Below the pieces are notes generated by a model that was not told the DNA's origin, did not search any database, and saw only the letters and a program-made list of their open reading frames with translations. From IMG/VR virus record IMGVR_UViG_3300042317_001691, positions 14,020 to 78,019 of that record: a DNA stretch of 64,000 nucleotides, one strand, 5' to 3'. A program made the translations under genes and the position numbers. This document shows positions 13,518 through 61,987 of this stretch, piece after piece. How positions within the stretch are numbered: the first letter of the stretch is position 1; each line of letters starts with the position of its first letter. Source of the DNA: a virus. Taxonomy: Duplodnaviria; Caudoviricetes.

Positions 13518-14390
13518 TTAAAAGTTCTTAATGATCTCGTTAAGATCAAAAACGTCTGCAGAACTATATGGGTAATCATGAACTCTATGTCCAGAAAAAT
13601 CATGTTCTTCAATATACCCTTCAATAGAAACTTGCTTCAGTACCTTTAATTTTGAGTCTGGATTTACGTTTTTATTATTTTTATATCCAAAAACTACGGG
13701 TTTATTTGTAATCCAACAGACGGTGCTTGTTTGGTTAAATGCGGCAGCGGCGTGCTGCATAAAACTATCAATTCCTAGTCTAGCTTGCGAGCTTTGAATT
13801 AATCCAAACAAATCCCTAAATGGTGCATGTATGTGTTGTACGTTTTGAAGCTTAATCTGATCTTCTCTACAAAATTGCAAAATATGATATTTTTGACCTA
13901 ATACGTTAACGATGGCTTGAGCTTGATGTGGGGGAATGTCGCGATTCCAACTATATTGAACGTCCTTGCTGCCTCCGCCAAAAGGCTGAAAGATTAAAGT
14001 TGGTTTACCAGTTGGAGATTGAAATCTTGTTTTATTGATCTCTACTGGATTTAAATAAAGTTCTGGCTTTGGACCATCGTATTTAATGCCCAAAACTTCG
14101 CACCAAGCTTCAGTTAAATGCATATTTTTCTTTAAGTATCCTTTGGCGAGATAAGGTTCATCGCACATAAAGATTGTATCGCCTCCTTTTACAAAATCTT
14201 CGTAAAAATAAGGGGCCATTCCAACCCTATAAAATCTATGCACATTAGGATTTCCAATAAAAACTTCTGGATATCCAGAAACAACAATTAAATTATAATC
14301 TGGAAAAGATTTTTTTATAGCTCTGCATACTGCGGTGGCCATAATAGATTTTCCAATTCCGCCATTGATTTGAAAAATAATGTTCTTCAT
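13518..14390 (-). CDS. Glycosyltransferase family 9-like (heptosyltransferase fold), full length
   Basis: GGIGKSIMATAVCRAIKKSFPD N-terminal half; LIFQPFGG...; ARLGIDSFMQHAAAAF C-terminal half. Confidence 0.8.
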   Translation of the reverse strand: MKNIIFQINGGIGKSIMATAVCRAIKKSFPDYNLIVVSGYPEVFIGNPNVHRFYRVGMAPYFYEDFVKGGDTIFMCDEPYLAKGYLKKNMHLTEAWCEVLGIKYDGPKPELYLNPVEINKTRFQSPTGKPTLIFQPFGGGSKDVQYSWNRDIPPHQAQAIVNVLGQKYHILQFCREDQIKLQNVQHIHAPFRDLFGLIQSSQARLGIDSFMQHAAAAFNQTSTVCWITNKPVVFGYKNNKNVNPDSKLKVLKQVSIEGYIEEHDFSGHRVHDYPYSSADVFDLNEIIKNF

Positions 14391-18218: not shown

Positions 18219-18247
18219 ATATTAAACAAACACTAGTTCGTTGTCAA
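18219..18247 (-). promoter_or_regulatory. sigma70-type promoter (leaderless)
   Basis: TTGACA-N17-TAATAT-N7-ATG, overlapping the 3' end of clpC. Confidence 0.75.
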
Positions 18248-20636
18248 CAACTTTAAAGGAAATTTCCTCTAAATTTTCGTTTCCAACAATAAATTTACAT
18301 AGTGGCAATTCAAATTTATTCCTTAATACTTTTTGTACTGCCCTTGCGTTATTTCCATCTTTTTCAATCAAATTGTATAGATGATCAAGAAGCTCTTGGT
18401 TTTTATTAAATTTTATATTTTTCTCAGATAGAGAATTTTTAATTTCATCAAGAGTGAAGCAGATCATTTTGATAAGTCCATCTTTGGAAAATTTGTTGTT
18501 AAATATTAGGACTTCATCTAATCTTGAAATTAATTCTGGCTTGAATGTTTTCTTGAGCGAGTTTTCATAATCATTCTTTCTTGTTTCTGTAGTTTTTTGT
18601 ACCACGAAGCCCATTGATTTTGACGTTTCAGTTTCTGCGCCTATGTTTCCAGTCATTACAATAATCGTATTTGTGAAATCAATTTTCCTGTTGAAGTTAT
18701 CAATAATGATTCCTTCGTCCATTATTTTTAATAAAATATTGACTACATCAGGATGAGCCTTCTCAACTTCATCGAATAGAATCAATGAGAAGGGATTGTT
18801 TCTTACAAATTCAGATAGCAAGCCTCCTTCTTCGTAACCCACATATCCTGCAGTAGCTCCTAACAGTTTTGAAACTGAATTTTTATCTACAAATTCAGCC
18901 ATGTCAATCTGTAGGAAAGAATTAGGCTTATTAAAAAATTTCTCGGCAATAATTTTTGCAGTATACGTTTTACCAACTCCTGTAGATCCAATAAACAGTA
19001 GATTGGCTAAAGTCTTTTTTCTCTTTTTAATTCCAGCTTTTGCGCACAGAAGAATTTCGTAAATTTTATTGATAACTTCTTCTTGATCTACCACAAGTTC
19101 ATTTATCTCTTCTTTTAGCGACAAAACACTATTTGCAGAACCTATTTTTAGTTTCTCTTTATCTAAACCGCTGATCTTAGAGAAGGTTTCGAAAATGTGA
19201 TCGTTTTCAATTTTAAACAAATTTTCAGAAGTCTTTTTTATCCAGACATTTCTTTTCGTTAAATATTCTTGGAGCTTTTTTTCGCATTTTTGCTTTTCAA
19301 TGTCTGAAGACAAATCTGTTTTATCCATATAAGAAAGAAGCTTTTCTTCAATCTTTTTTATATTATCTGGAACTTCGTATTTAATCAATTTGCCCTTCGC
19401 TCCAATTCTATCAAGGATGTCAAATGCCTTATCTGGAAATCTTCTGTAGGGCAAATATTTATCAGAAAGTTCAATAATGTTATTGATTATTTCATCATCA
19501 TAGGTCACCCCATGAAACATTTCATATGAAACTTTTGCTTTCTTGAGGATTTCAAATGTTTGTTTTTTATTAGGCTCATCAATATTAATTAACTGAAATC
19601 TTCTATTCAATGCCGAATCTTTTTCAAAATATTTTTTATATTCAGCATGAGTTGTAGCTCCAATGCATTTTATTTCACCTCTCGCTAGAGGAGGTTTAAT
19701 CATATTTGCCAAATCTAAACTGCCCTCATTTGAGCCAGTTCCTACGATAGAATGAATTTCATCAATAAATAAGATGGCATGGGGATCTTCTTTTAATTCG
19801 TCTATCAGGCCCTTAAATCTTTCTTCAAACTGACCTCTGTATTTTGTGCCAGCAACAAGTGCACTCAGATCAAGTGAGTAAATTTTAAATCCAGCAAAAA
19901 ATACTGGACACTCACCCGAATTAATTCTCTGCGCCAACGCTTCAACAACGGCAGTTTTTCCTACTCCAGCATCGCCAACAAGAATAGCGTTGTTCTTTAC
20001 TTTACAAGAAAGAACCTCAATCAATTTATCAAGCTCAGAATCTCTGCCATTAATTTTTGAGTCTAATTTTAAAACTAATTTAGTGAGATCATTGCAATAT
20101 TTTTCTACAAATTTTCCTTGCTCTTTTTTGCTTGGGTCTGATTTTTCTTTTTCTTGTTGGGGTTGATCTTGTCCACTTTCTGTTGGGTGAAGAGTTTGCA
20201 GGATCGCATCTGCGATTTCTTCAACGGGAACTTCTTTTGAAATTAAATAGTTTCTTAAGAAGCTGTCCCTCTTAAAAATTCCATATATTACGTGCTCTAC
20301 ACCTATAAATTCTTGATCCAGATCTTTAGAAAGTTCATAGCTATAGCGTAAACTAAACTCTAAATCTTCACTCCACCAATCTTCTGTTTTTTCAGCTTTC
20401 TTAAAAAAAGATGACTCTAAAGTGGGAAGCTCTATAACTAAACAATTCTTTAAAGCGTCTACATTAATCTTAAAATGATTTAAGATATTTTTAATGGCTA
20501 TAGTGCCATTATCTAATAAAGCGTAAAATAAATGCGCGGAATTGACCTTTTGATGCTTATTTTTATTCGCTATTTCAATTGCGTCCTCAATGGATTTTTT
20601 TGCCCGAGGAACTAGATTGTATTTTTCCATCTTCAT
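18222..20636 (-). CDS. clpC: ClpC/ClpA-type AAA+ chaperone
   Basis: Clp N-domain; Walker A GDAGVGKT and GSTGVGKT; Walker B LFIDE and ILFDE; pore loops KYRG and GYVG; MGF ClpP-docking loop. Confidence 0.92.
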   Translation of the reverse strand: MKMEKYNLVPRAKKSIEDAIEIANKNKHQKVNSAHLFYALLDNGTIAIKNILNHFKINVDALKNCLVIELPTLESSFFKKAEKTEDWWSEDLEFSLRYSYELSKDLDQEFIGVEHVIYGIFKRDSFLRNYLISKEVPVEEIADAILQTLHPTESGQDQPQQEKEKSDPSKKEQGKFVEKYCNDLTKLVLKLDSKINGRDSELDKLIEVLSCKVKNNAILVGDAGVGKTAVVEALAQRINSGECPVFFAGFKIYSLDLSALVAGTKYRGQFEERFKGLIDELKEDPHAILFIDEIHSIVGTGSNEGSLDLANMIKPPLARGEIKCIGATTHAEYKKYFEKDSALNRRFQLINIDEPNKKQTFEILKKAKVSYEMFHGVTYDDEIINNIIELSDKYLPYRRFPDKAFDILDRIGAKGKLIKYEVPDNIKKIEEKLLSYMDKTDLSSDIEKQKCEKKLQEYLTKRNVWIKKTSENLFKIENDHIFETFSKISGLDKEKLKIGSANSVLSLKEEINELVVDQEEVINKIYEILLCAKAGIKKRKKTLANLLFIGSTGVGKTYTAKIIAEKFFNKPNSFLQIDMAEFVDKNSVSKLLGATAGYVGYEEGGLLSEFVRNNPFSLILFDEVEKAHPDVVNILLKIMDEGIIIDNFNRKIDFTNTIIVMTGNIGAETETSKSMGFVVQKTTETRKNDYENSLKKTFKPELISRLDEVLIFNNKFSKDGLIKMICFTLDEIKNSLSEKNIKFNKNQELLDHLYNLIEKDGNNARAVQKVLRNKFELPLCKFIVGNENLEEISFKVVDNELVFV

Positions 20637-20644
20637 TTTTTACA

Positions 20645-23197
20645 CTATTTTAGTTCTGAGAGTTTCATATAGATTTTTTCATCCAATATGAAAATGTTAT
20701 CCAAGAACATCGTATCCGTTGATTTCCGTCCTGTCAATACTACAACGCTATCTTCTTTGGGAGTTTTACCACCGTTTTCAAAATATTCCGTCATTTTGTT
20801 TCGATTGCCGTCCATGAGCATGGCGGACATCGAGCCGTATTCATCTTGAATATTTACTCTTAAATATTTGTTTCCGTTTCTACTTGTTCTTTTTTCCGCT
20901 TCAGTTACCCAACCTACAATTTTAATTTGCGAGTTGTTTTCTGTAGATCTAAACTCTAGAGTGTTGGCAAAATTATTTTCGTCGCCATCTTTAAAAATCT
21001 CTCTGATTTTATGTGAATAAGAGTAGCCAAGAAGCTTCTTTTCAAAAAACCAGTTTGCAAATTTTTGATGCTTTGCATTCTTATCATAAATTTCTTTATA
21101 CGACTGATATTTTTTCTTAAAGGTTTCGAATCTTTTGTCAGTCATTATTTTTTTATTGTCGTCTCCAATCATTGAATCTTTAACGACCGCTTTAATTGAA
21201 TTTAAGATATCAAAATTATGATTCTGTCCAAGATTAACGAATTGAATCTTTTCCCTATCAGTCAGTAAATTGAAAGCTTGAGCCTCCAAAACCAACCTGC
21301 ACCTGTCGCTAGAAAAGCTATCTAGGGCTCCCGCTTGAATTAGTGCTGACAATGCCCCGATATTCAATCCAGACTCTTTTGCAGCAATAAAAATATCATA
21401 TTTATTAACAAACGTGGATTGTCTAAAATCAATAAGAGATTCTAATACTTTTGTTGAGATTCCTTTGATTGAATTTAAGCCATATCTGATGTCTCTGCCT
21501 TCAATTTTAAAGTCAGAATCTGACTTTGCTAAATCTGGTGGCAAAAGCTTCATGTCGAAATAACAAAGCTCTTTTGAGATTTTGGAGATTTCTTCGTGTG
21601 GATCTGGTTCGTACTGGGTCGATTTAAGCAAGCTCAAAAAGAACTCTTGTGGATAATTAAATTTTAAATATATAGTCCAAGCTGCAAGAATCGCATAGGA
21701 AATTGAGTGCGATTTATTGAAGCTGTAGTTTGCGCTATCTTCCGCAACTTTCCAAAGTATAGATGCGATCTCTTCCGAAAGACCATTTTCTTTGATCTTG
21801 TCTTCAATTTTTTGTTTCCACGCTTCAATCTGATCAACCTTTTTCTTTCCTACAATTCTTCTAAGCTGTTCAGCTTCATCAAGAGTAAATCCTACTTTAA
21901 CTGCCATTTTCATTAACTGTTCCTGATAAAGAGGAATGCCCCCTGTATAGGAAAGTACGTCATCAAAAAATGGATTAACACTTTGGAAGCTTCCTGTTTC
22001 CGTATATGTTGCGTAATTCTGCAAAAACTCTAAAGCTCCAGGTCTTGCAATTGCCACTACGGCAGATAATTCTTCTAGACTTTTTGGTTTGACTTTTTGG
22101 CAAACTCTAAAGTTTGTATCTGCTTCAATTTGAAACAGTCCTTGGGGATTCTGAAGTTGTTGCAGATTGTTATAAATCAAAGAACTAGATAGATCTATTT
22201 CCTCTAATTTAATACCCGTTTCTTTTGCTACGTTTTGAAGTACTGAAAGAGTGCGAAGTCCAAGAATATCAAATTTAACAGTTAGTTCGGATACGTTATT
22301 CATGTCGTATCCAGAAACCAAATCTCCATCGCTGGTTTTCTGAACTGGCATGAGATTGCTCATTTCATCGTATGAAATGGCAATTCCAGATGGATGAACT
22401 CCAGTATTTTTGTTTAAATTCTCTAATTTGCGAGCAATTTCATATACTTTTGGATGGAGGTTTGCAAAAGCTCTGAATTTTTCAGATTCTTTGTACGCCT
22501 CTGTTAAGGGCGCAACCTTTCCGAATTTTTTGGGGATGGAGTCACTAATTTCGTTTACTTTTGCTTCGTCCAACTCCCCTACGATTTTACCACATTCTTT
22601 AATGCAAAGTTTACCGCTCAAAGTATTCATCGTGAGAATCTTTGAGGTTTTTCCTTTATATTTTTCTTCAATGTATTGGATTACTTCTTTTCTTCTTTCG
22701 TAGCTGATATCGTTATCAACATCTGCTAGCAGTGAGCCGTCCAAATAAGTGACTCCGTTGTGTTCAATTTTTTTGGCGCGACTTTTTGAAACAAATCTTT
22801 CAAAGAACAGTCCATACTTAATTGGGTCTACTTTGGTCACTCCAATCAAATAAAGAATTAAACTACCTGCTGCGCTTCCGCGACCTGGACCAGTAGGAAT
22901 GTCATTCTCATGGCAAAAATTCAATATGTCCCAATTCAGTAAAACATAATCAATAAATCCAAGCTCTTGAAAGATGGAAAGCTCAATTTTAGCCCTGTCG
23001 TAATATTCTTGCTTGTTAGGTAATTTATCAATTCCCTTGTCTTTGACGCCTTTGTGAGCAAGCTTTCTTAAAAAATCAAAGTTAGATGAAGTGCTCGGAA
23101 TACTGAGCATATCGTAGTACTTGTTTTCTATTTTGATTTGTGGCAATAGAACGCCAACCGCAGTTGGAGTTTCGTATTTTTGAAATTCTTCGAACAT
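20645..23197 (-). CDS. dnaE: DNA polymerase III alpha subunit, catalytic part (lacks most of the PHP domain)
   Basis: GPGRGSAAGSL, LFFERF, ADVDND, HPSG, KFDILGLRTL, LYQEQLM, YSFNKSHS, C-terminal OB fold. Confidence 0.95.
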   Translation of the reverse strand: MFEEFQKYETPTAVGVLLPQIKIENKYYDMLSIPSTSSNFDFLRKLAHKGVKDKGIDKLPNKQEYYDRAKIELSIFQELGFIDYVLLNWDILNFCHENDIPTGPGRGSAAGSLILYLIGVTKVDPIKYGLFFERFVSKSRAKKIEHNGVTYLDGSLLADVDNDISYERRKEVIQYIEEKYKGKTSKILTMNTLSGKLCIKECGKIVGELDEAKVNEISDSIPKKFGKVAPLTEAYKESEKFRAFANLHPKVYEIARKLENLNKNTGVHPSGIAISYDEMSNLMPVQKTSDGDLVSGYDMNNVSELTVKFDILGLRTLSVLQNVAKETGIKLEEIDLSSSLIYNNLQQLQNPQGLFQIEADTNFRVCQKVKPKSLEELSAVVAIARPGALEFLQNYATYTETGSFQSVNPFFDDVLSYTGGIPLYQEQLMKMAVKVGFTLDEAEQLRRIVGKKKVDQIEAWKQKIEDKIKENGLSEEIASILWKVAEDSANYSFNKSHSISYAILAAWTIYLKFNYPQEFFLSLLKSTQYEPDPHEEISKISKELCYFDMKLLPPDLAKSDSDFKIEGRDIRYGLNSIKGISTKVLESLIDFRQSTFVNKYDIFIAAKESGLNIGALSALIQAGALDSFSSDRCRLVLEAQAFNLLTDREKIQFVNLGQNHNFDILNSIKAVVKDSMIGDDNKKIMTDKRFETFKKKYQSYKEIYDKNAKHQKFANWFFEKKLLGYSYSHKIREIFKDGDENNFANTLEFRSTENNSQIKIVGWVTEAEKRTSRNGNKYLRVNIQDEYGSMSAMLMDGNRNKMTEYFENGGKTPKEDSVVVLTGRKSTDTMFLDNIFILDEKIYMKLSELK

Positions 23198-51559: not shown

Positions 51560-54500
51560 TTATCTCAACATGCCTCCTAATCTTTTTTCTTCTTTTATTA
51601 CTCCCATTACAACTTCTTTAATTCTTCTGGCCATTTCTCGATTTTGACGGTCTTGATTTTCGGAAGAATCTTCTTCTTCTTTTTTAGATTTTCCGCTAGA
51701 GTCTGAATTCACAGTTATATTTATGGTTCCGACTCCACTGACTTTTTCCACTAATTCCTCTAATTTTGATTCTATTCTTGAGGTAGATTCATCTGAAGCG
51801 CCACCTGATCCTCCTCCACCAGAATTCATTTTTTGCAAATTATTGTATCCAATATTTTGAGCAGCTTGCTTTGATATAACAAATTCTCCACCATTTAACA
51901 TAGCTGGGACATTATCTCCCATGCCATTGCCTGGAATATATCCACCAGCAGCCCTGCGATTTCCCAACATTTTTTGTAAATACAAGTCTTTCTCTTTGGG
52001 AGTAAGACTCGTTACGGATTGATTGGGATTAAAAATATCTTTAGCATCGCCTCCACCAAATCCAAGATCGCCCATATTCATTCTCGAAGAGCTATAAGAT
52101 TCAGAAGGTTTAAACAAATTCATCGGATTCAATTTAGGCGCACTAAAACTCGAACTTGGGGACTGCCAACCATAAGTAACAGGAGTCCCTAACTGATCGT
52201 AGCCTAATCTACCAAAATTTTGAGCCATTCCATATCTACTGTTAAAAACGTCCTCGCTCATATTAACGTAGGAACTGCTTTTTGAATCCCACATTGCAAG
52301 ACCTTCTGTATTATTTAGTCCAGCTTGACCAGCACCTATTACAGAAAAATCTTTATACCCAGAAGAACTAAACATATTAGCTAGCCCACCTCTTGTTTCA
52401 CCCCCCATTGTTCCACCCGTAAATCCACCCATTAATTTTTCACCAAATGTGGCGGTTCCACCTTCTGCGGCTGCAGCTTGAGCTGTTGAACTCCATCCTT
52501 GTCCAAAACTATTTGCGGCGGCTCCAAGTGCGGCCATGCCTACAGACATTCCTATCTGAACAAGCATTCCTTTCATTTGTGCTTTTCTTTGAGCTTCTTG
52601 TTGTTTTTTAAATTCTTCAATTCTTTTTCTTGCTTCTTCTTCTATATTGAATTTTTCTTTTGTTGCTCCTATTCCTTCCAGATATAAATCAAAAGCTTTT
52701 TGTTTGGATTCAAGGTATTGTTGATTCATTGAGTTTTCTTGATTTCTCAAGCCAAAAAGAGTAAAATTGCCACTTCCTGCGCTTAAATTAATACCTTGCG
52801 GTCCAATTTTATCGAATTGAGTTCCTGTTGTTTGTTGAGTTGCGTATGCTAATAAATTTTTCTGACCCATTATTGCACCAGCTCCTCTTTCTCCAGGCAT
52901 AAAGAATCCACCTTCACCCGTTTGTTGGTTCTTGGCGTAGAAATCGCTCTGAGCTTTCATTAGAGCCATTTGCTTATCTTCTTCTTTCCCCTTATATGAA
53001 GATAAACCTATTACTTTTCCACTCTCGTCAAAAGACATGTCCCCAACTCTTGTTTGGCCGTATGGGGTATATTTTTTTGGATTAACCACCAAATCCTTTA
53101 GATCTGCTTCTTGAAAACCAACCATTCCGCCATTGGCGAATCCTTGAATTTTTCCAGAGTTTAATCTATCAAGAAAGCTTTTGCCATATTTTGAGGCGGC
53201 CTTTTTATTTATAACATATTCTCCACCCATTAACATTGCAGGGACATCATCTTTTGTCCCAGAACCGCCTACAATTGGTCCACCACTTGCACGTTCAACA
53301 TATTTCATTGATTGACCGCTAAGATCAAATGCGCCACCAAGTAAACCTCTAGTCAATTTATCTGCCATGTTACCCATTAATGCATCATTAATCCTTTGCA
53401 AGAACGATGTGGCCGCGCCAAGTAAGGCGTCTTTAACCGACTTAGTGCCACCAGAAATATCCTTCATTGCCTGAAGCATTGAATCTCTAAAGGCCATCGG
53501 TATATCTTTTCCAAGTTTTGTTTCAAATTGATTGATATTGGTATCTAATTCACTATAATAAGATTCAAAACCTGCAGCCATTCCACCGCCTCTATAATAT
53601 CTTTGCTTTTCTGCAGTTTTAAGTGCTTTTTCTTTTTCTCTGTCTGCAGCTTCTTTTTCCTTGGGAATTGCTCCAGGTACAATAAGAGATTCAGCTCTAT
53701 TTTTTGCTAATGTAGTTCTCGTTTGTTGTAGTTTGGTCTCTAATTCAGTTATTTTTTTATCTATTTCGGCAATCTGATTCTTATTATCATTCTCCTCTTC
53801 TGGAGAAACGGGTTGTTCCAAGATGCTTTTTTGATCTTTTAATTTTAATAAATCCGCTGCAATATTTTTTGAATCTTGTTCACGTAAAATTCTATCAATT
53901 TCACTTGAATTTGATTCGCCAGTTTCAATTGGGCTAGGCTTTCCAGAAAGTTCATTAGCAGCTCCAGTTACAATTCGTTTAAATTCTTTCGCTGCCGAAA
54001 CTACCGTATCTTCAAATCCTTTTGATTGTAATTCCGTGGCTTCTTGTATAACCTTTAAATACTCTTCTGGAGTTTTTGCTTCGGCTGCCCTTCTTTGTAA
54101 TTCTATGTCTTGTGGCGCTATTCTTTGAACTTCATTGAAAACATTTCTTCTAGTTTCTAATGCGGCTTGAGCATTCTTTGTTTGAATGTCTTGCAACCTA
54201 TCTGTATAAGTATTTTGCGCTCTTTGGACAGCAAGTTCATACTCATTGTCTCTTCCAGCCTTGTATGTCAAACTAGAGATTTCTAATTCTGCATCCCTTA
54301 TTTCTCGTATTGCAGAAAGTCTTTGCTGTTGGATCTGTAAACCTTTTTGCTGTTTATCTAAGTTGGAAGAGATTATGTCTCTTTCTGCTTGTAGATAGAA
54401 ATTTTGTTGTTTTGCTACGGCGGCATTTAATGTAGCTTGAGCGTTATCCCTTAGTCTTGCTTTGGATTGCCTTTCGGCAAGTTCTACTTGCAAACTAAAA

Positions 54501-57500
54501 AGTTTGTATATTCCTTTGAGAACTTCTTCTTGCGCTCCGAGAGTTTGAAGTTTATTTTCTTGATCTATTAAATCTTCTTTATTCAGCTCTAAAGTTCTAT
54601 CTAATATTTCAACTCCATACTCAAGTTCATTTTTCTCTAATATTAAATTTTCAATTCTATCTTGTATTTGTTTTGCAATCTCTTCTTGCTTACCCTTTAC
54701 TGGATCTAAAGCCCTTAATAAACCTGCTATTGCAGTTTTTTGAGCCTCAATTCCTTCAGCTTCTTGTACCTTTCTATAAGTTCCTCTAATTTCATTTGCT
54801 TGAGGTTCAGTTAAAGAACTCGCTCCAATTTGTAAAAATTTATTTATTCTTTCTTCGCCAACTCCTGCTGCAATATTTTGTATTTCTCCCTCCAATTTTC
54901 TTCTTTCTTCGAGAGCTTTTATTTCTAAATCTATTTGTACTTTCCTCGCTTCAGAAGTTGACAGCAACTCTTTTTCAATAGATAAAGAGTTTTCTCTTGC
55001 AGTTGGGATGGAGAATTCGAGTTGTTTAATTTGCTGTCTTATTCCTAATTCTTTTTTCAATAATTCAGATTCAATTAACAAAGCTTCTTCTCTTAGTGAA
55101 GCTGCGTATTGAACTATATTTGCTTCTCCAGCGAGGGTTTTTATATATTCTTGAAATAGTTTATATTTTCTATCTAAATTTACTCCTTCAACTTCTTGTC
55201 CATTTAGAATTGTGTCTTCAAGATCTTTTTGTTTTTGCTTTAATTCAGCAATGTCCTTTTCCACTTCTAATTTTCGCTTATCAGTTTCCAATTTAATTGC
55301 TCCAAAACCTTTGTCATCACCACTTAATCTCCTCTCTAAAAATGCTATTTTTTCTTTTACATTTTGCAATCTAAAATTAAAAGCTTCCTTCGGTGAAGTT
55401 TTTTGTTGGAACGCAAGAAATTCAGCAGTATTTTCTGGCCTAATACCAAATTGTTTTTCAAGTTTATCGATACTAACTTTCTGTTGAGAAAGTGGAACTC
55501 TTTTTTTTATTTCTTTTGAAGCTTCTTCGATATCTCTAACAAAATTAGCAATTGTAAAATTAACCCCTTCTTTGATTTCATCTGGTCCTGCAATATAGTT
55601 CGGCCCCTTTTCTTCTCTTATTTTTTGTTGAATAATTGGAATTAATTGATTTCCCAAAGCTCGCGTTAAATCCCTATTTCCACTGTTGCTCAATCCAGTT
55701 TTTCCTAAAGCGTCTGTAAGTTGTTTTTCATCTTCACTACTAAAAAAAGTAGAAAATCCGCTTCTATTAAAAAAACCTCTAAATCCAGCCCCCGAAACAT
55801 TTCCAGATTCAGAAATAGATTCTAGAATTTTTTTCTGTTGATTGTTTAAAGTTACGCCATATTTTTGAGTAGCTTCATCGAGCACGCTCATTGCTTTTTC
55901 AGTTTCTGAAACCGTTCCATTCAGAACTTGAAAAATTTTATCTGCAGCGTCTAATCCTTCAAAAGCTAAGAAAGCATAAGGTAATACCTTTAAAGCTTGT
56001 CCAGCGATTGCTGCAACACCTCCTTTTTCCCTTAAAGCCGCTCCTACGCTTTCCAAAGGACCAGCTTCAGCTTCTCTTGCAGCAGCATATGCTTGACCAG
56101 CTTTTGTTTCTTCAAATCTTTTGCCTTCATTAAATATATTATCAATTAAATCTTTTGATTCTTGTAGTGAATAAACTGCAGTACCTAAACCACTAATTGC
56201 TTCTCCAACAACTTTTGTACTTTCTCCAAATTTACTTAATACACCAGAAACAAATGATAATGCCGCTTGCCATTTAAATATATTAAATGTTGATTGTTGG
56301 ATTGATTTTATTTCATCATTTTTAGCATCAACTACTTTTCCAGATGCATCAGCTTCCGCTGCTTTACTTTCATTATTTTGATTTTGTGGATTTGGTGCTG
56401 GTAAACCTTCGACTCTAGCAAGTAATCTATCTTCAATATCTTTAGTTGTTGTAGACAAAATCCTTGCAGCATTTTCAATTGGACGAGCTAAGTCTTCGCC
56501 TATTTTATTGAATCTTTCCTCTAATGATTTAAAAATTATTTCAATCTTTTCTGGTGAAATTCCATCACCATCAGCAAAATTTGGAATCTTACCGTTCGGT
56601 TCGTCGCGTTTATTTATAACGGCTAAACCGTCTGGGTTTTGCCTATTAATTAATCTATTGTCTTTAACTACTGAAATTGCAGAAAGCGGAAGACCCGATT
56701 CAATCTTTTCTCTTGAGATTGCATCCATCAAAGCTCCACTTGCATAGTTTGGAATATATCCAGAATAAGCACTGGAAGAACCTCTTTCACGCTCTCGCAA
56801 ATAAGCTTGTCTTCTTTCCGATCTTTTTTTTGCTGCTCCTTTTAGATTTCTTTCGGGATTTGGAGCATCTAGTGCAGCTTTTATGGTTTTTATGACTTCT
56901 ATTGCATCAATCCCTTCTGGCATGTCAAAAATACTTTGAATTGCTTGATTCGCTAACTGTTCTACAATAGGATTTTTTACGGATGTTTTTATAAAATCCT
57001 TTAATCTTTTAATTATTCCATCTCCTTCGCCGACAACTCCATCTCCATCAAAATCTTCAGTGGGGTTCGCAAAATTAGGAATTCTTAAATTTGAATCTGC
57101 TTTTAATCTTTTTGAAGCTGGATCATATTTGACGCTCGACATCCAAGGCTGAAGTCCCGTTGGTACGCCGCCAGAAGAACTAAATTGTTGTACCAGAGCT
57201 TTATACTCTTCACTTCTGCCATAATTCCAACCTTTCCAAGTTGAATAAGCTTTATAATCACCTTGTGTTATTTGACTTATGAAAGTTTTAAGAATTTGTC
57301 GCCTTGCGAGTTTTTGTTTTTCTTGTTCTTCTAATTGTTTCTTTTCTGCCGCCTTGCGAAGTCCAACGCTCGAAACTCCCTTTGGAAATGCCTTAGAGGA
57401 GAATGGCATTAAATAGCTAAGATTTTTTTCATTCAATTCAGACGCATCTAGCTGAACGCCTCTTAGCTCTTCGTCTTGAGAAGTAAATTTAGCTTGGAAT

Positions 57501-60500
57501 CCAACTAATTCTGGATCATATTTTTTTACGCCTTCAATTGCAGCATTTTTTAATTTTAATGTATTTTCCCTAACTCTTGAAGTAATCTTCCAGAGATCTG
57601 GATTATCTTTACGGAGGGAAGACGGATAAATTTGTTCTTTTTCATAAACTTTAGCAATTGCTGCTAATTTGACCTCTTCCCAAACATCGTTTAATCCTTT
57701 AGCTCTCCAAAATCTAGAAAATAGTTTTCCTAAATTGCCGTATTGCAGATTTTTAAATTTTCCTTCAACATCTCCCTCTAAAATATCATTTGGCTGAACA
57801 TTTAAAACTGAAGCTCCAAAAAAACCTCCGTTTACTTCGCCTGTAGTAGCGCCTTGTGAACTAGCTCTTAGAACAAAGCGTTTTAAATTCTTTACGGCAT
57901 CGGGTTCAGAGCCTTCAGTAAAAAATGTATTATTTCCTAAAATAGAAGCAACAATTGCGTTCTCATCTAAGACTGGATTTCTTCGCGAATCAAAACTTCC
58001 AACCACAGTGCCAGTGAATCCTGTTCCTCTGATTTCATCTAGAGTTGATTCCAAAGGTCTATTTGCTTGTAAAGCATAACCGATACTGCTTCCATATCTT
58101 GTGCCAAAACCTTTTAAGTTAGAAGTTTTTGCAAAATTAGGAATATAACCTCTTAAAGCTGAACTTGCTGGATTGAAATAGCCTTGAGTATCAAACATTG
58201 TATGTTTGCCGCCCAATCCTCCAACCAATTCATTTAGTGCTGCAACTTGTGGACTTTTATCTAATTGTTTAAATATGTAATTGTCTACTTCCCTGTCTGT
58301 AATATTCTTTTTCGAAGAGAAAAACTCGTTTGTTTTTTCAAGCAAGAAATTTTGCATGATATCATTGACTTTGAAATTTTGCGCGTAAACATCGTCAATG
58401 CCAATTGAATTAGGTCCGTATATTTTTTTATATTCTGAAACGACTCCCCTAACTCCAGCCTGAGCCATTACTTCGGATAACAAGTATGCAAAGTTTGCTT
58501 TTAGTTGTTGATTTTTAAAATTAGCTTGTGCAAATTCATCTACGCCAGAATCGGTTACCACTTCTCTTTCGAATCCAGCTAGCAATCCATTTTTGGTTAA
58601 AGTTTTTCCTACGTTTGTAAATGAAATTGCATTTTTCTTAAACAAAGTTGGATTTGCATTTTCAAAATCTTTGATGGCTTTATTTACATCGTATTCTTTT
58701 TGAATCTTTTCCCCGCCAGGTTTGTAAAATATTTTTTGACCAAAACCTTGTCCAGATTTTGGAGCTAAGAATTTTCCGCTTTGACCACCGCCAAGCTCAT
58801 TAAAGTCTGGATCGGAATAGAGCATTCCTGCTCCAGATCCAGTTAGTTCTGAGAAATTTGGAATGAAACCAGAGGCTGCTGAAGTGACCAATAAACCATT
58901 AACTTGAAAGTTATCAGTAGCCGTAGTTAACAATTTGCCTAAATCATTATCTCTTCCATAATTTTCAAAAATTGCTCTACGAAACTTATCTTCAACACTT
59001 GAATTTGAATAGCCTCCACTTTTAACCTCTAAAAAATTTAAAGAAGATCCATTTTTTTTAACACCATCCACATCTGAAGATCCATCTATTTTAAAACCAT
59101 CTATAGCTGAAGATCCTTTATATTTTAAAGAAGAATTATCTTTATAATCTTTTGATTCTTTTAATTGTTTCAAAATTCTATTTTCGTAATCAATTGGACT
59201 TTCATTTTCATTTAATTTAGGAATTTTTATTTTTTCAATATTGGGATTTACGCTAACTGAATCTAGAGGAATTAACTTTTTATCTGAAGCTAATGATTTT
59301 TTTAAATTATATTTTATTCTTGGATAACGAGCTAAAGATTCCGCTGTTTCTGCGGAAAAATTAGGAATATATCCACTAGCCGCAGATTTAGCGCCGCCAT
59401 AATCAGCAAGAAATCTTTCTCTTAAATTTCCACCTTTAAGTAATTCATTAATTGTTTTTCGCGTTAAGTCTTGTACTAAATCTTTTTTTGTAGCTTTAAC
59501 TTCTACGTAATTAAAATCTTTTTCTGGCAGACCGTATTCTTTTGCGATCTTTGATTTTAATCCATAAATATCAAAAGAACTTCTTTCATCGGAGCCACCA
59601 GAAGCAGTAAATTGCCCCCAATTGTCATCCAAGAAATCCATGTTTGCAGCTTTCAACATTATTTCAAAAAAGCCACCTGCAGTTTGATCATTTATGAAAT
59701 CAAATTTCTGCCCTTCTTTTAATGCATAATCCATTGCATCTGTGGGCTTTATTTTCAAATAGTCTAACTCTTGTTTTATAAATTCTCCAATTTTTGGAGA
59801 TAAGGTTGCGTTCGCCCTTGCCTTGAAGAGATTTTTGATATCTTCTTCTTTTGCTTTTATAGCATTGAGATTTTCATTTTCTCTTCTATAAACATTTCCG
59901 ACTGGAATATTATCAACTCCAAAGGCTCCATACTTTTGAAAAATACTTAAAAGAGTGGGGTCGCTTTTTACAGCTTTTTCTAAATTTTCTCTTTTAAATC
60001 TTGCTCTAATTAAATCTTGATCGCCGCCTATAGTTAATCCAGCGATGCTATATTTTCCTGCATCTAATACTAATTCTGGAAGACCAGTTTGATTTTGGGC
60101 TGGATTTGCGAAATTTGGAATAAATCCTCTTGCTGCGGATCTGGGGCGATAATTGGGAATGATTGCGTCTCCACCAGTTCCAGCAAAATTTGGAATCCTT
60201 CTTTCATTGCTATTATAGACCATCGTTCCGCGCTTACCACCACCCATCGGAAAATTATTATCAACAATAATTCTTGAGCCTGCTGGAGCATTTTTCTTTT
60301 CCTGCATCACTGCACTACCAATAGGCATATATCCACCAGCAGCTTTCTTAACTTCTTTAACGCCTTCTGGAGAAGAACGAATTCCACCCTCATACAAAAC
60401 AGGAGCAATTGTCTTGCTTATGGAAGACATTTTTTCTAAAAATGCGGCCTGTTCTCTGTATATGCCTAAAATATATTCTGCTTGTTTAGCCTTGTTTCCC

Positions 60501-61987
60501 TCTAAAGAAAGAATTGTTGCTTGAACATCTTGATTTTTTGTCAAAGCTGCAAAGATGTCTCTCTCTAAAGTTGCTTGTTCTTTTTTTGCGCTGTTTACTC
60601 CAAGCTGAGTTTGAATACTATCTGATAAAAATTTACCGAAATTAGTAAGAAGTTTTAATCCGACTCCTGCGGCCAAAAGTAGACCTGGACCAGATAAGAC
60701 ATTTCCAATTCCAGCTACGATACCTTGAGCAAGTTTGTTTCCTATCGTTTCTCCTTCGTCGCCACCAGTTAAGGCTTTATTAATTGAACCTACGGCAGAA
60801 TCTAAAGCACCTAAAATATTTTTTAAATTACCAGAAAGACCAATCTTACCAATATTGCTCGCCAATTCAGAACTGGACAAAACTAATCTATCAAAAGTTG
60901 CCGAAGTTGTTCGGCCCAACTGCTCGACTTTTCCAAATGCTTGATTTGTTGCTGTTTGAGATTCAGATAAAGATCTAGCAAAAACTCCATTTGCATCAGC
61001 GACATCTTTTAAAACAGCAGATAATTTATCAATTTGAAAACCGCCGCCGATTTTAATTAAAACACTTTTTCTGGTGGCGTCATCAAGGTATTGTATCTCA
61101 GAAGCTAATTTTCTAATAATAGTTGTAGCGGGAAGTAAATTTCCCTCTACATCATTAACTGCTATTCCTAAACTTTTTAAAAGATCAAGATTTTCTCTGC
61201 CTTGTACTCTTGTGAAAATTGTTTTTAAGGCGTTACCGATAACGGCTCCACCTCTAGCTGTTTTTTCTTGAAGTGTTGTGATTAATGCGGTTAATTCATC
61301 AAAAGAAACTCCAGCTTCTTGAGCTACCGAAGCCGAACGAGTTATACCTTCAATTAAATCTTTTGAACTTACTGCAAATTTTGTATCGACGGCAGCTAAT
61401 TTATTTACTACCTTTTCGTAATCAAGTCCAACATCATTAAAAGAACTAACTGCTGCAGTTAAACCTCTTACAGATTCAGCGGCATCTAAACCAGTTGTTC
61501 TGGTTAAAACAAGTGCCGCTTGAGCCCTTTTCAGAGACTCTTCCATTCCAGCACCTTGACGAGAAAATTCTAATGCTGCATTTGCGGCATCTTTAAATGA
61601 TGTTCCAGTTAATTTTGCGACATTGAAAATCCCTCGCCCAAGAGATTCCATATTTTTTGCCGTCTCTCCAGAAGTTACAGCTATTTCTGTAAGCGTTCTT
61701 TCTACATCAATACTAGAAACAACGATTGATTCGAAAGCTTTGGCGACTGCATTTAATACTCCAACGGAAGCTCCGAATGCGAGAACGCGAGCGTTCGCGG
61801 CCTCCATTGATTTTGTGAACTCATCTGCTTGTCCAGTAATTTTACCAAGTGGGCGACTAATAGAATCTAAACCGCGTGCGTTTATAGTTGGAACTATAGT
61901 TACCTGCGCTCTACGAGCCGCATTGGAAATATCTGCTTCCATGCGACTTGTATCCGCTGATACTGGTATTCTGATTTCGTCCGCCAT
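51560..61987 (-). CDS. Tape measure protein (3475 aa) carrying an internal cassette array of cargo domains
   Basis: TP901-type TMP core (AALEFSRQG, AVRGLTAA, DKLAAVD-like, TARGGAVIGNALKTIFTR); long coiled coils; two GGxxxGxGxxDxVPAML..GE motifs; nine IPN[FY] repeats. Confidence 0.93.
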   Translation of the reverse strand: MADEIRIPVSADTSRMEADISNAARRAQVTIVPTINARGLDSISRPLGKITGQADEFTKSMEAANARVLAFGASVGVLNAVAKAFESIVVSSIDVERTLTEIAVTSGETAKNMESLGRGIFNVAKLTGTSFKDAANAALEFSRQGAGMEESLKRAQAALVLTRTTGLDAAESVRGLTAAVSSFNDVGLDYEKVVNKLAAVDTKFAVSSKDLIEGITRSASVAQEAGVSFDELTALITTLQEKTARGGAVIGNALKTIFTRVQGRENLDLLKSLGIAVNDVEGNLLPATTIIRKLASEIQYLDDATRKSVLIKIGGGFQIDKLSAVLKDVADANGVFARSLSESQTATNQAFGKVEQLGRTTSATFDRLVLSSSELASNIGKIGLSGNLKNILGALDSAVGSINKALTGGDEGETIGNKLAQGIVAGIGNVLSGPGLLLAAGVGLKLLTNFGKFLSDSIQTQLGVNSAKKEQATLERDIFAALTKNQDVQATILSLEGNKAKQAEYILGIYREQAAFLEKMSSISKTIAPVLYEGGIRSSPEGVKEVKKAAGGYMPIGSAVMQEKKNAPAGSRIIVDNNFPMGGGKRGTMVYNSNERRIPNFAGTGGDAIIPNYRPRSAARGFIPNFANPAQNQTGLPELVLDAGKYSIAGLTIGGDQDLIRARFKRENLEKAVKSDPTLLSIFQKYGAFGVDNIPVGNVYRRENENLNAIKAKEEDIKNLFKARANATLSPKIGEFIKQELDYLKIKPTDAMDYALKEGQKFDFINDQTAGGFFEIMLKAANMDFLDDNWGQFTASGGSDERSSFDIYGLKSKIAKEYGLPEKDFNYVEVKATKKDLVQDLTRKTINELLKGGNLRERFLADYGGAKSAASGYIPNFSAETAESLARYPRIKYNLKKSLASDKKLIPLDSVSVNPNIEKIKIPKLNENESPIDYENRILKQLKESKDYKDNSSLKYKGSSAIDGFKIDGSSDVDGVKKNGSSLNFLEVKSGGYSNSSVEDKFRRAIFENYGRDNDLGKLLTTATDNFQVNGLLVTSAASGFIPNFSELTGSGAGMLYSDPDFNELGGGQSGKFLAPKSGQGFGQKIFYKPGGEKIQKEYDVNKAIKDFENANPTLFKKNAISFTNVGKTLTKNGLLAGFEREVVTDSGVDEFAQANFKNQQLKANFAYLLSEVMAQAGVRGVVSEYKKIYGPNSIGIDDVYAQNFKVNDIMQNFLLEKTNEFFSSKKNITDREVDNYIFKQLDKSPQVAALNELVGGLGGKHTMFDTQGYFNPASSALRGYIPNFAKTSNLKGFGTRYGSSIGYALQANRPLESTLDEIRGTGFTGTVVGSFDSRRNPVLDENAIVASILGNNTFFTEGSEPDAVKNLKRFVLRASSQGATTGEVNGGFFGASVLNVQPNDILEGDVEGKFKNLQYGNLGKLFSRFWRAKGLNDVWEEVKLAAIAKVYEKEQIYPSSLRKDNPDLWKITSRVRENTLKLKNAAIEGVKKYDPELVGFQAKFTSQDEELRGVQLDASELNEKNLSYLMPFSSKAFPKGVSSVGLRKAAEKKQLEEQEKQKLARRQILKTFISQITQGDYKAYSTWKGWNYGRSEEYKALVQQFSSSGGVPTGLQPWMSSVKYDPASKRLKADSNLRIPNFANPTEDFDGDGVVGEGDGIIKRLKDFIKTSVKNPIVEQLANQAIQSIFDMPEGIDAIEVIKTIKAALDAPNPERNLKGAAKKRSERRQAYLRERERGSSSAYSGYIPNYASGALMDAISREKIESGLPLSAISVVKDNRLINRQNPDGLAVINKRDEPNGKIPNFADGDGISPEKIEIIFKSLEERFNKIGEDLARPIENAARILSTTTKDIEDRLLARVEGLPAPNPQNQNNESKAAEADASGKVVDAKNDEIKSIQQSTFNIFKWQAALSFVSGVLSKFGESTKVVGEAISGLGTAVYSLQESKDLIDNIFNEGKRFEETKAGQAYAAAREAEAGPLESVGAALREKGGVAAIAGQALKVLPYAFLAFEGLDAADKIFQVLNGTVSETEKAMSVLDEATQKYGVTLNNQQKKILESISESGNVSGAGFRGFFNRSGFSTFFSSEDEKQLTDALGKTGLSNSGNRDLTRALGNQLIPIIQQKIREEKGPNYIAGPDEIKEGVNFTIANFVRDIEEASKEIKKRVPLSQQKVSIDKLEKQFGIRPENTAEFLAFQQKTSPKEAFNFRLQNVKEKIAFLERRLSGDDKGFGAIKLETDKRKLEVEKDIAELKQKQKDLEDTILNGQEVEGVNLDRKYKLFQEYIKTLAGEANIVQYAASLREEALLIESELLKKELGIRQQIKQLEFSIPTARENSLSIEKELLSTSEARKVQIDLEIKALEERRKLEGEIQNIAAGVGEERINKFLQIGASSLTEPQANEIRGTYRKVQEAEGIEAQKTAIAGLLRALDPVKGKQEEIAKQIQDRIENLILEKNELEYGVEILDRTLELNKEDLIDQENKLQTLGAQEEVLKGIYKLFSLQVELAERQSKARLRDNAQATLNAAVAKQQNFYLQAERDIISSNLDKQQKGLQIQQQRLSAIREIRDAELEISSLTYKAGRDNEYELAVQRAQNTYTDRLQDIQTKNAQAALETRRNVFNEVQRIAPQDIELQRRAAEAKTPEEYLKVIQEATELQSKGFEDTVVSAAKEFKRIVTGAANELSGKPSPIETGESNSSEIDRILREQDSKNIAADLLKLKDQKSILEQPVSPEEENDNKNQIAEIDKKITELETKLQQTRTTLAKNRAESLIVPGAIPKEKEAADREKEKALKTAEKQRYYRGGGMAAGFESYYSELDTNINQFETKLGKDIPMAFRDSMLQAMKDISGGTKSVKDALLGAATSFLQRINDALMGNMADKLTRGLLGGAFDLSGQSMKYVERASGGPIVGGSGTKDDVPAMLMGGEYVINKKAASKYGKSFLDRLNSGKIQGFANGGMVGFQEADLKDLVVNPKKYTPYGQTRVGDMSFDESGKVIGLSSYKGKEEDKQMALMKAQSDFYAKNQQTGEGGFFMPGERGAGAIMGQKNLLAYATQQTTGTQFDKIGPQGINLSAGSGNFTLFGLRNQENSMNQQYLESKQKAFDLYLEGIGATKEKFNIEEEARKRIEEFKKQQEAQRKAQMKGMLVQIGMSVGMAALGAAANSFGQGWSSTAQAAAAEGGTATFGEKLMGGFTGGTMGGETRGGLANMFSSSGYKDFSVIGAGQAGLNNTEGLAMWDSKSSSYVNMSEDVFNSRYGMAQNFGRLGYDQLGTPVTYGWQSPSSSFSAPKLNPMNLFKPSESYSSSRMNMGDLGFGGGDAKDIFNPNQSVTSLTPKEKDLYLQKMLGNRRAAGGYIPGNGMGDNVPAMLNGGEFVISKQAAQNIGYNNLQKMNSGGGGSGGASDESTSRIESKLEELVEKVSGVGTINITVNSDSSGKSKKEEEDSSENQDRQNREMARRIKEVVMGVIKEEKRLGGMLR

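Follow-up and report, generated by a model that had tools for sequence, protein, structure and literature searches.

The 64,000-nucleotide stretch of viral DNA analysed here (the window, i.e., positions 14,020 to 78,019 of IMG/VR virus record IMGVR_UViG_3300042317_001691; Duplodnaviria, Caudoviricetes), with a G+C content of ca. 32%, carries a giant gene for a tape measure protein (TMP) on its minus strand. Our focus was placed on one domain within this protein, referred to as module 2, that is predicted to adopt a PD-(D/E)xK (restriction-endonuclease-like) fold. The gene, the module and the two peptides that frame it are positioned as follows:

51560..61987, minus strand: TMP gene, an open reading frame of 3475 residues (P0001) that bears module 2
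59354..59383, minus strand: upstream junction AASGYIPNFS, TMP residues 869-878; a similar peptide flanks the module in homologues
58880..59353, minus strand: module 2, the PD-(D/E)xK-like domain, TMP residues 879-1036, delimited from the translation, the structural model, the homologues and the structural neighbours
58850..58879, minus strand: downstream junction AASGFIPNFS, TMP residues 1037-1046

The carrier was recognised as a TMP from an N-terminal PF10145 domain (PhageMin_Tail, TP901 type; residues 125-315, E-value of 1.2e-29 in a Pfam scan), from twelve PHROG tape-measure families aligning to its N-terminal 300-500 residues, from a lambda-type minor tail protein encoded downstream of the gene (PF05939, E-value of 1e-5, under the Pfam cutoff), and from 202 related giant TMPs, which reside on metagenomic and viral contigs of up to ca. 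150 kb. TMPs serve as tail rulers, in that their length sets the length of the tail, and they leave the tail before the DNA does; in some phages they also act as carriers of cell-wall enzymes.

On the minus strand, 58880-59353 comprises 158 codons without a stop, whereas a plus-strand reading of the same stretch was rejected because of its many stops. Module 2 is framed exactly by the two AASG[YF]IPNFS junctions, and nine such [I]PN[FY] peptides are spread over TMP residues 598-1805 (window 56573-60196). Each junction ends in Pro-Asn-Phe/Tyr, with the Asn-Phe pairs around module 2 located at residues 876-877 and 1044-1045. At the DNA level the junctions share only ca. 12 nucleotides and differ at synonymous positions, indicating that it is the peptide that is conserved; on these same grounds, the possibility that the junctions are long DNA repeats driving recombination was rejected. 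No paper linking IPNF to tape measure proteins was found in the literature library searched, which is not the whole literature.

Homologues of module 2 were sought with an exhaustive HMMER search over 1.84 billion representatives, followed by an alignment-based scan of IMG/VR. The former yielded 12 homologues, every one within a protein of 523-3580 residues, and the latter added ten more loci; IMG/VR queried with the single protein gave no match, and matches came only with the alignment. A tblastn search against 50,697 GenBank phages returned no module-2 match, and a degenerate DNA pattern for KFLRA..ENYG retrieved only two chance matches from GTDB genomes, both interrupted by stops. Within the sensitivity of a word-seeded search, no stand-alone homologues of 75-277 residues were found and the 278-2000 residue range produced a single TMP fragment only. 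The final alignment comprised 21 modules (i.e., that of the window and 20 homologues), all inside giant TMPs, basic (isoelectric points of 8.1-10.3), and with the homologues 31-47% identical to the window module by BLASTP.

Thirteen positions are invariant in all 21 modules, i.e., D909, Y934, E935, D963, G964, E987, K989, G991, K1001, R1004, E1008, N1009 and D1025. The elements that carry the argument, together with an insertion that is peculiar to this copy, are the following (model residues counted within the structural model described below):

59261..59263, minus strand: D909, an invariant Asp in an N-terminal helix-plus-hairpin extension, adjoining model strand 32-35
59183..59185, minus strand: E935, next to invariant Y934; 21/21, in model helix 53-68 (the first core helix), in register with the helix Glu of the VRR_NUC and Hjc profiles
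59099..59101, minus strand: D963 in SSAIDG; 21/21, directly before model strand 86-90, aligned to the Asp of the PD motif of VRR_NUC and Hjc
59054..59086, minus strand: insertion DGSSDVDGVKK, residues 968-978, holding D974; absent from all 20 homologues
59021..59029, minus strand: E987-V-K989 (ExK); 21/21, at the end of model strand 104-111, in register with the ExK of the VRR_NUC and Hjc profiles
58961..58987, minus strand: family-specific helix motif KF(L/R)RAxxEN, with K1001, R1004, E1008 and N1009 invariant, in model helix 117-130 after the ExK strand

An earlier note on this DNA had derived a nuclease signature from the motifs DYE (933-935), DVDG (972-975) and LEVK (986-989), all of which are located as it numbered them. 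E935, E987 and K989 of that signature proved invariant in 21/21 modules, while D974, which the note had taken for the catalytic Asp, was rejected since it falls in an 11-residue insertion that is unique to this protein and modelled with low confidence. Judging from the alignment, D963 is instead the signature Asp, and the likely metal ligand. With the insertion absent, as in homologues, the motifs are then spaced at about E-23-D-12-ExK (homologue model numbering). It should be stressed that this TMP contains 26 matches to a loose E..D..h(E/D)xK pattern, so that the bare pattern does not exceed chance; the E/D/ExK signal is credible because it is conserved across 21 diverged modules, and not because the pattern occurs.

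Using the family alignment, AlphaFold2 (AF2) models were built for the window module and for one IMG/VR homologue lacking the insertion. Both were confident, with a mean predicted local distance difference test score (pLDDT) of 91.2 and a predicted template modelling score (pTM) of 0.85 for the former, and a pLDDT of 97.4 and a pTM of 0.90 for the latter; the insertion was the sole low-confidence part of the window model (mean pLDDT of 55 over model residues 91-100). The two models present the same order of elements, i.e., an N-terminal helix and hairpin, the helix bearing Y934/E935, a strand that follows D963 directly, another with E987-x-K989 at its end, the helix bearing K1001/R1004/E1008/N1009, and a final strand (in the window model H53-68, E86-90, E104-111, H117-130 and E148-157 from the Y934/E935 helix onwards). 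The PD-(D/E)xK core order is thus found in both models, albeit with a very short first core strand, in whose place the N-terminal hairpin may complete the modelled sheet. The catalytic pattern of the superfamily, D...(D/E)xK plus an upstream helix Glu, is present as the invariant residues E935, D963, E987 and K989, and PD-(D/E)xK enzymes place their catalytic residues at these same secondary-structure positions.

A Foldseek comparison, which the earlier note had proposed as a check on its restriction-fold assignment, returned nothing at E ≤ 0.001 from the PDB or BFVD (best E-values of 0.39 and 0.05 against the PDB and of 0.11 against BFVD, i.e., no strong match). Nonetheless, the neighbour lists obtained from both models with both structure-search programs consisted, at weak scores, nearly entirely of PD-(D/E)xK nucleases, and at least 38 of the 50 entries of one such list were of this type when counted from the entry titles. 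Among these neighbours were FAN1, VRR-NUC, Hjc, Hje, NucS/EndoMS, AF1548 and the cap-snatching endonucleases of arenaviruses and bunyaviruses; EC869-type CdiA-CT, FokI, BamHI, BsmI, BpuSI, MspJI and McrC; and Cas4, Can1/Can2/Card1, SduA and HamA. The structural matches span the module from about model residue 45 to the end, and the first 45 residues, including D909, are without counterpart. The element order, the invariant E/D/ExK residues and the structural neighbours together support the restriction fold put forward in the earlier note, although no family or PDB sequence match accompanies it, and module 2 very probably belongs to the PD-(D/E)xK fold class. By sequence it appears to represent a new and very divergent family of this class, so far seen only inside giant TMPs.

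To place module 2 among its relatives independently of the module itself, 119 related TMPs were selected by residues 330-640. All of them (119/119) have G[YF]IPNF junctions, and the segments of the window TMP recur among them at very different frequencies:

m6, the 52-residue last segment (residues 1749-1800): in 119/119
m1: in 38/119
m4: in 26/119
m3: in 14/119
m5: in 9/119
m2 (module 2): in 2/119

The slot of module 2 also varies, being the first in most carriers, the second in the window TMP, P0032 (with the order m1, m2, m4, m3) and P0006, and further on in P0087. Moreover, two TMPs that are 90% identical to that of the window over their first 560 residues (P0015 and P0016) bear an unrelated module of ca. 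130 residues in the module-2 slot (best BLASTP E-value of 2.3). Since module 2 occurs in 2/119 relatives, in varying slots, and is replaced by an unrelated module in such closely related TMPs, it can be regarded as accessory cargo. Precomputed Pfam calls further revealed PF00959 (lysozyme), PF00182 (chitinase class I), PF01464 (SLT) and PF00583 (GNAT) domains in sister TMPs (P0076, P0087, P0091, P0093, P0095, P0096, P0116, P0028 and P0030), indicating that this TMP family carries enzymes. The TMP is thus a cassette of exchangeable enzyme modules, of which module 2 is among the rarer ones; its earlier description as a TMP cargo module holds, in that it is discrete, folds confidently and is exchangeable between TMPs.

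Some further observations concern the neighbouring modules. By eye, the replacement module (P0016 residues 883-1012; also in P0015, P0038, P0041, P0044 and others) displays FE on a helix together with PDID and AEAK motifs, and it may be another small PD-(D/E)xK-like module, in which case the slot may be swapping nuclease types. Module 1 (window 59384-60106, residues 627-873) has 39 homologues, in which E775 is Glu in 37, D806 is invariant, E829 is Glu in 32 and Asp in 7, and K831 is Lys in 34 and Arg in 5. An hhalign comparison of modules 1 and 2 gave a P-value of 0.005, anchored on the hhEVK...KF stretch, and both may be distant relatives of one fold. One of the module-2 carriers also shows a weak helix-hairpin-helix match. 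Elsewhere in the window, the minus-strand intervals 18222-20636 and 20645-23197 hold a full-length ClpB/ClpC-type double AAA+ protein (Clp_N, AAA, AAA_lid_9, AAA_2) adjoining a DnaE-type DNA polymerase III alpha subunit. The presence of an unfoldase of this kind in a phage whose TMP has to bring folded modules into the tail tube is a curious coincidence.

Taken as a whole, we hold with slightly more conviction than doubt that residues 879-1036 form a small, basic, independently folding PD-(D/E)xK domain that serves as an exchangeable TMP module, is expelled together with the TMP, and cuts host, defence-related or competitor nucleic acid. Of its parts, nuclease activity is probable, and action inside the host is an even call. 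Mechanistically, the TMP would occupy the lumen of a tail that is long and non-contractile, and at infection it would be driven out before the DNA, whereupon module 2 would be delivered to the cytoplasm, possibly after having been cut free at its junctions. Its basic surface would then bind nucleic acid, with D963 and E987, aided by E935, holding Mg2+ or Mn2+ and K989 placing the water molecule for the attack on a phosphodiester bond; the nucleic acid cleaved in this way would be that of the host or a competitor, or one related to defence.

A number of results weigh against this reading. Pfam, NCBI-style profile and PDB sequence searches returned no nuclease for module 2; even up to an E-value of 10, Pfam gave no match for nine of the modules, and a scan of the whole TMP showed no nuclease family. 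PHROGs likewise offered no informative match for module 2, and a match to an oxygenase beta subunit (E-value of 0.042) was taken as chance since it spans the N-terminal extension only. When the module family was compared by hhalign to profiles of 19 VRR_NUC and 20 Hjc sequences, VRR_NUC (PF08774), for which there is no Pfam match, was aligned with a P-value of 0.018 and a probability of 2.6%, motifs in register, while Hjc (PF01870), equally without Pfam match, yielded a non-significant P-value of 0.18. Since the positive control of VRR_NUC versus Hjc reached a P-value of 5.7e-5, module 2 is far more distant from either family than the two are from each other. In both alignments, E935, D963 and ExK do coincide with the E, PD and ExK columns, i.e., the register agrees and the statistics are weak. 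There is also no HMM match to Tox-REase-3/5/7 or CDI_toxin_EC869_like (PF15647, PF15648, PF15649, PF21111). The nearest clusters in a protein language-model atlas are nevertheless those of Tox-REase-7, -3 and -5 and of the CdiA EC869-like toxin (0.87-0.89), which is a lead only, and Tox-REase-3 was found in 2/401 sampled Bacillota-phylum genomes, too few for a profile. Structurally, the models show next to nothing of the strand that should follow the first helix directly, and their topology may thus be a variant of PD-(D/E)xK. Finally, there are few TMP copies per virion, and a folded domain of 158 residues fits tightly in the lumen of a tail tube.

Two alternative explanations are unlikely to about the same degree. 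In the first, the PD-(D/E)xK fold would serve the phage's own DNA, by binding or trimming the leading genome end or by guiding DNA through the channel, making module 2 an entry factor rather than an effector. Its basic character would suit such a task, as would the structure-specific nature of minimal Hjc and VRR-NUC among its neighbours and the location of the module region in the N-terminal half of the TMP, which in siphophage tails is the head-proximal half, close to the end of the DNA. A module that is absent from 117/119 relatives, and that is replaced by an unrelated one in 90%-identical TMPs, is however a poor fit to core DNA delivery.

The second holds that module 2 is not a nuclease at all, but a common alpha/beta arrangement whose invariant residues serve other chemistry (e.g., the metal-dependent hydrolysis of an envelope polymer) or contacts in tail-tube assembly. 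This would be in line with the weakness of all structural and profile scores, the lack of a family model match, the cell-wall enzymes (PF00959, PF00182, PF01464) borne by related TMPs, and the N-terminal 45 residues whose invariant D909 is left without counterpart in the nuclease matches. It would leave unexplained, however, that one superfamily prevails in the lists whichever of the two models and two programs is used, that three motif residues named a priori are invariant at canonical secondary-structure positions, and that the profile alignments to two families share one register. A degenerate and catalytically dead PD-(D/E)xK domain, kept only to provide spacing or length in the ruler, is very improbable: any insert does alter the tail, and this copy has its additional 11 residues between the Asp and ExK strands, but those residues lie in a low-confidence loop that leaves the motifs intact, and the invariance of 13 positions, all of the catalytic ones among them, in modules with an overall identity of about 31-47% speaks for selection on the site rather than on length.

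Beyond the favoured reading of module 2 as an exchangeable, tail-borne nuclease lies a bolder proposal, which we offer tentatively and somewhat doubt, in which the entire TMP would be a delivery polyprotein. Enzymes that change from phage to phage (two nuclease-like, one kinase-like, and others) would be lodged between the G[YF]IPNF junctions, and module 2, as an active nuclease of an unrecognised family, would be released into the host at the very start of infection, ahead of phage gene expression, to cut host or defence nucleic acids. The junctions may be processing sites (for a protease or for Asn-mediated self-cleavage), docking peptides or mere linkers; that they are processing sites cleaved at Asn-Phe is pure speculation.

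If true, long-tailed phages could stock the lumen of the tail in advance with effectors destined for the cytoplasm and exchange these among each other, and the siphophage tail lumen would constitute an effector-injection device comparable to the cargo loading of type VI secretion systems (T6SS) and contractile injection systems. This bears on how phages could beat host defences before any gene expression, and on how phage TMPs are tied in evolution to the TMP-like effectors with nuclease domains found in contractile injection systems. Module 2 would also define a PD-(D/E)xK family that is missed by current family libraries.

In terms of architecture, module 2 comes closest to VRR-NUC (the nuclease domain of FAN1 and phage VRR-NUC proteins) and archaeal Hjc/Hje. 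It differs from these in its extra N-terminal helix and hairpin with the invariant D909, in its KF(L/R)RAxxEN helix motif in place of their downstream Gln or Ser motifs, and in being embedded in a TMP, whereas VRR-NUC and Hjc are free-standing or parts of repair enzymes. In terms of deployment, its closest counterparts are the restriction-endonuclease-fold toxin tips of polymorphic toxins (Tox-REase-3/5/7; EC869-type CdiA-CT, PDB 4g6u and 4zqu). Their carriers, however, are contact-dependent inhibition (CDI), Rhs or T6SS proteins rather than a phage tape measure, and their nuclease domains are C-terminal, whereas module 2 is internal between junction peptides. No immunity gene was seen for module 2, no search aimed at one having been made.

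Enzymes embedded in TMPs are known as the muralytic motifs of mycobacteriophage TMPs and of T5 pb2. Like the enzymes of these proteins and of the sister TMPs, module 2 would be a globular domain with enzymatic function that sits within a TMP and travels in the tail, but known TMP-embedded enzymes act on the cell wall, whereas the predicted nuclease fold of module 2 implies a nucleic-acid target. Within the library searched, which is not the whole literature, no paper on a PD-(D/E)xK module in a phage TMP was found. A likeness also exists to the polyvalent proteins, which are giant, multi-domain proteins with mixed effector domains, presumed to enter the cell together with the DNA (Iyer et al. 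2017, PMC5512222). This TMP is similarly giant and multi-domain; a Pfam scan, the only scan run for this purpose, detected none of the hallmark domains or processing peptidases of polyvalent proteins in it, and the polyvalent-protein study makes no mention of tape measure proteins (PMC5512222).

The nearest precedent for the carrier is Tme, a TMP-related effector of the contractile injection system of Streptomyces davawensis, which bears a C-terminal EndA-like nuclease of proven activity, with DRGH and H-N-N motifs and a beta-beta-alpha-metal fold (PMC11126660). Both are TMP-like giant proteins with a nuclease domain, a predicted one in the case of the window TMP, and for Tme ejection out of a particle resembling a tail has been proposed (PMC11126660), while fold, position and system differ. 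Unlike the nuclease of Tme, module 2 is PD-(D/E)xK-like, internal, one of several modules, borne by a phage, and a nuclease by prediction.
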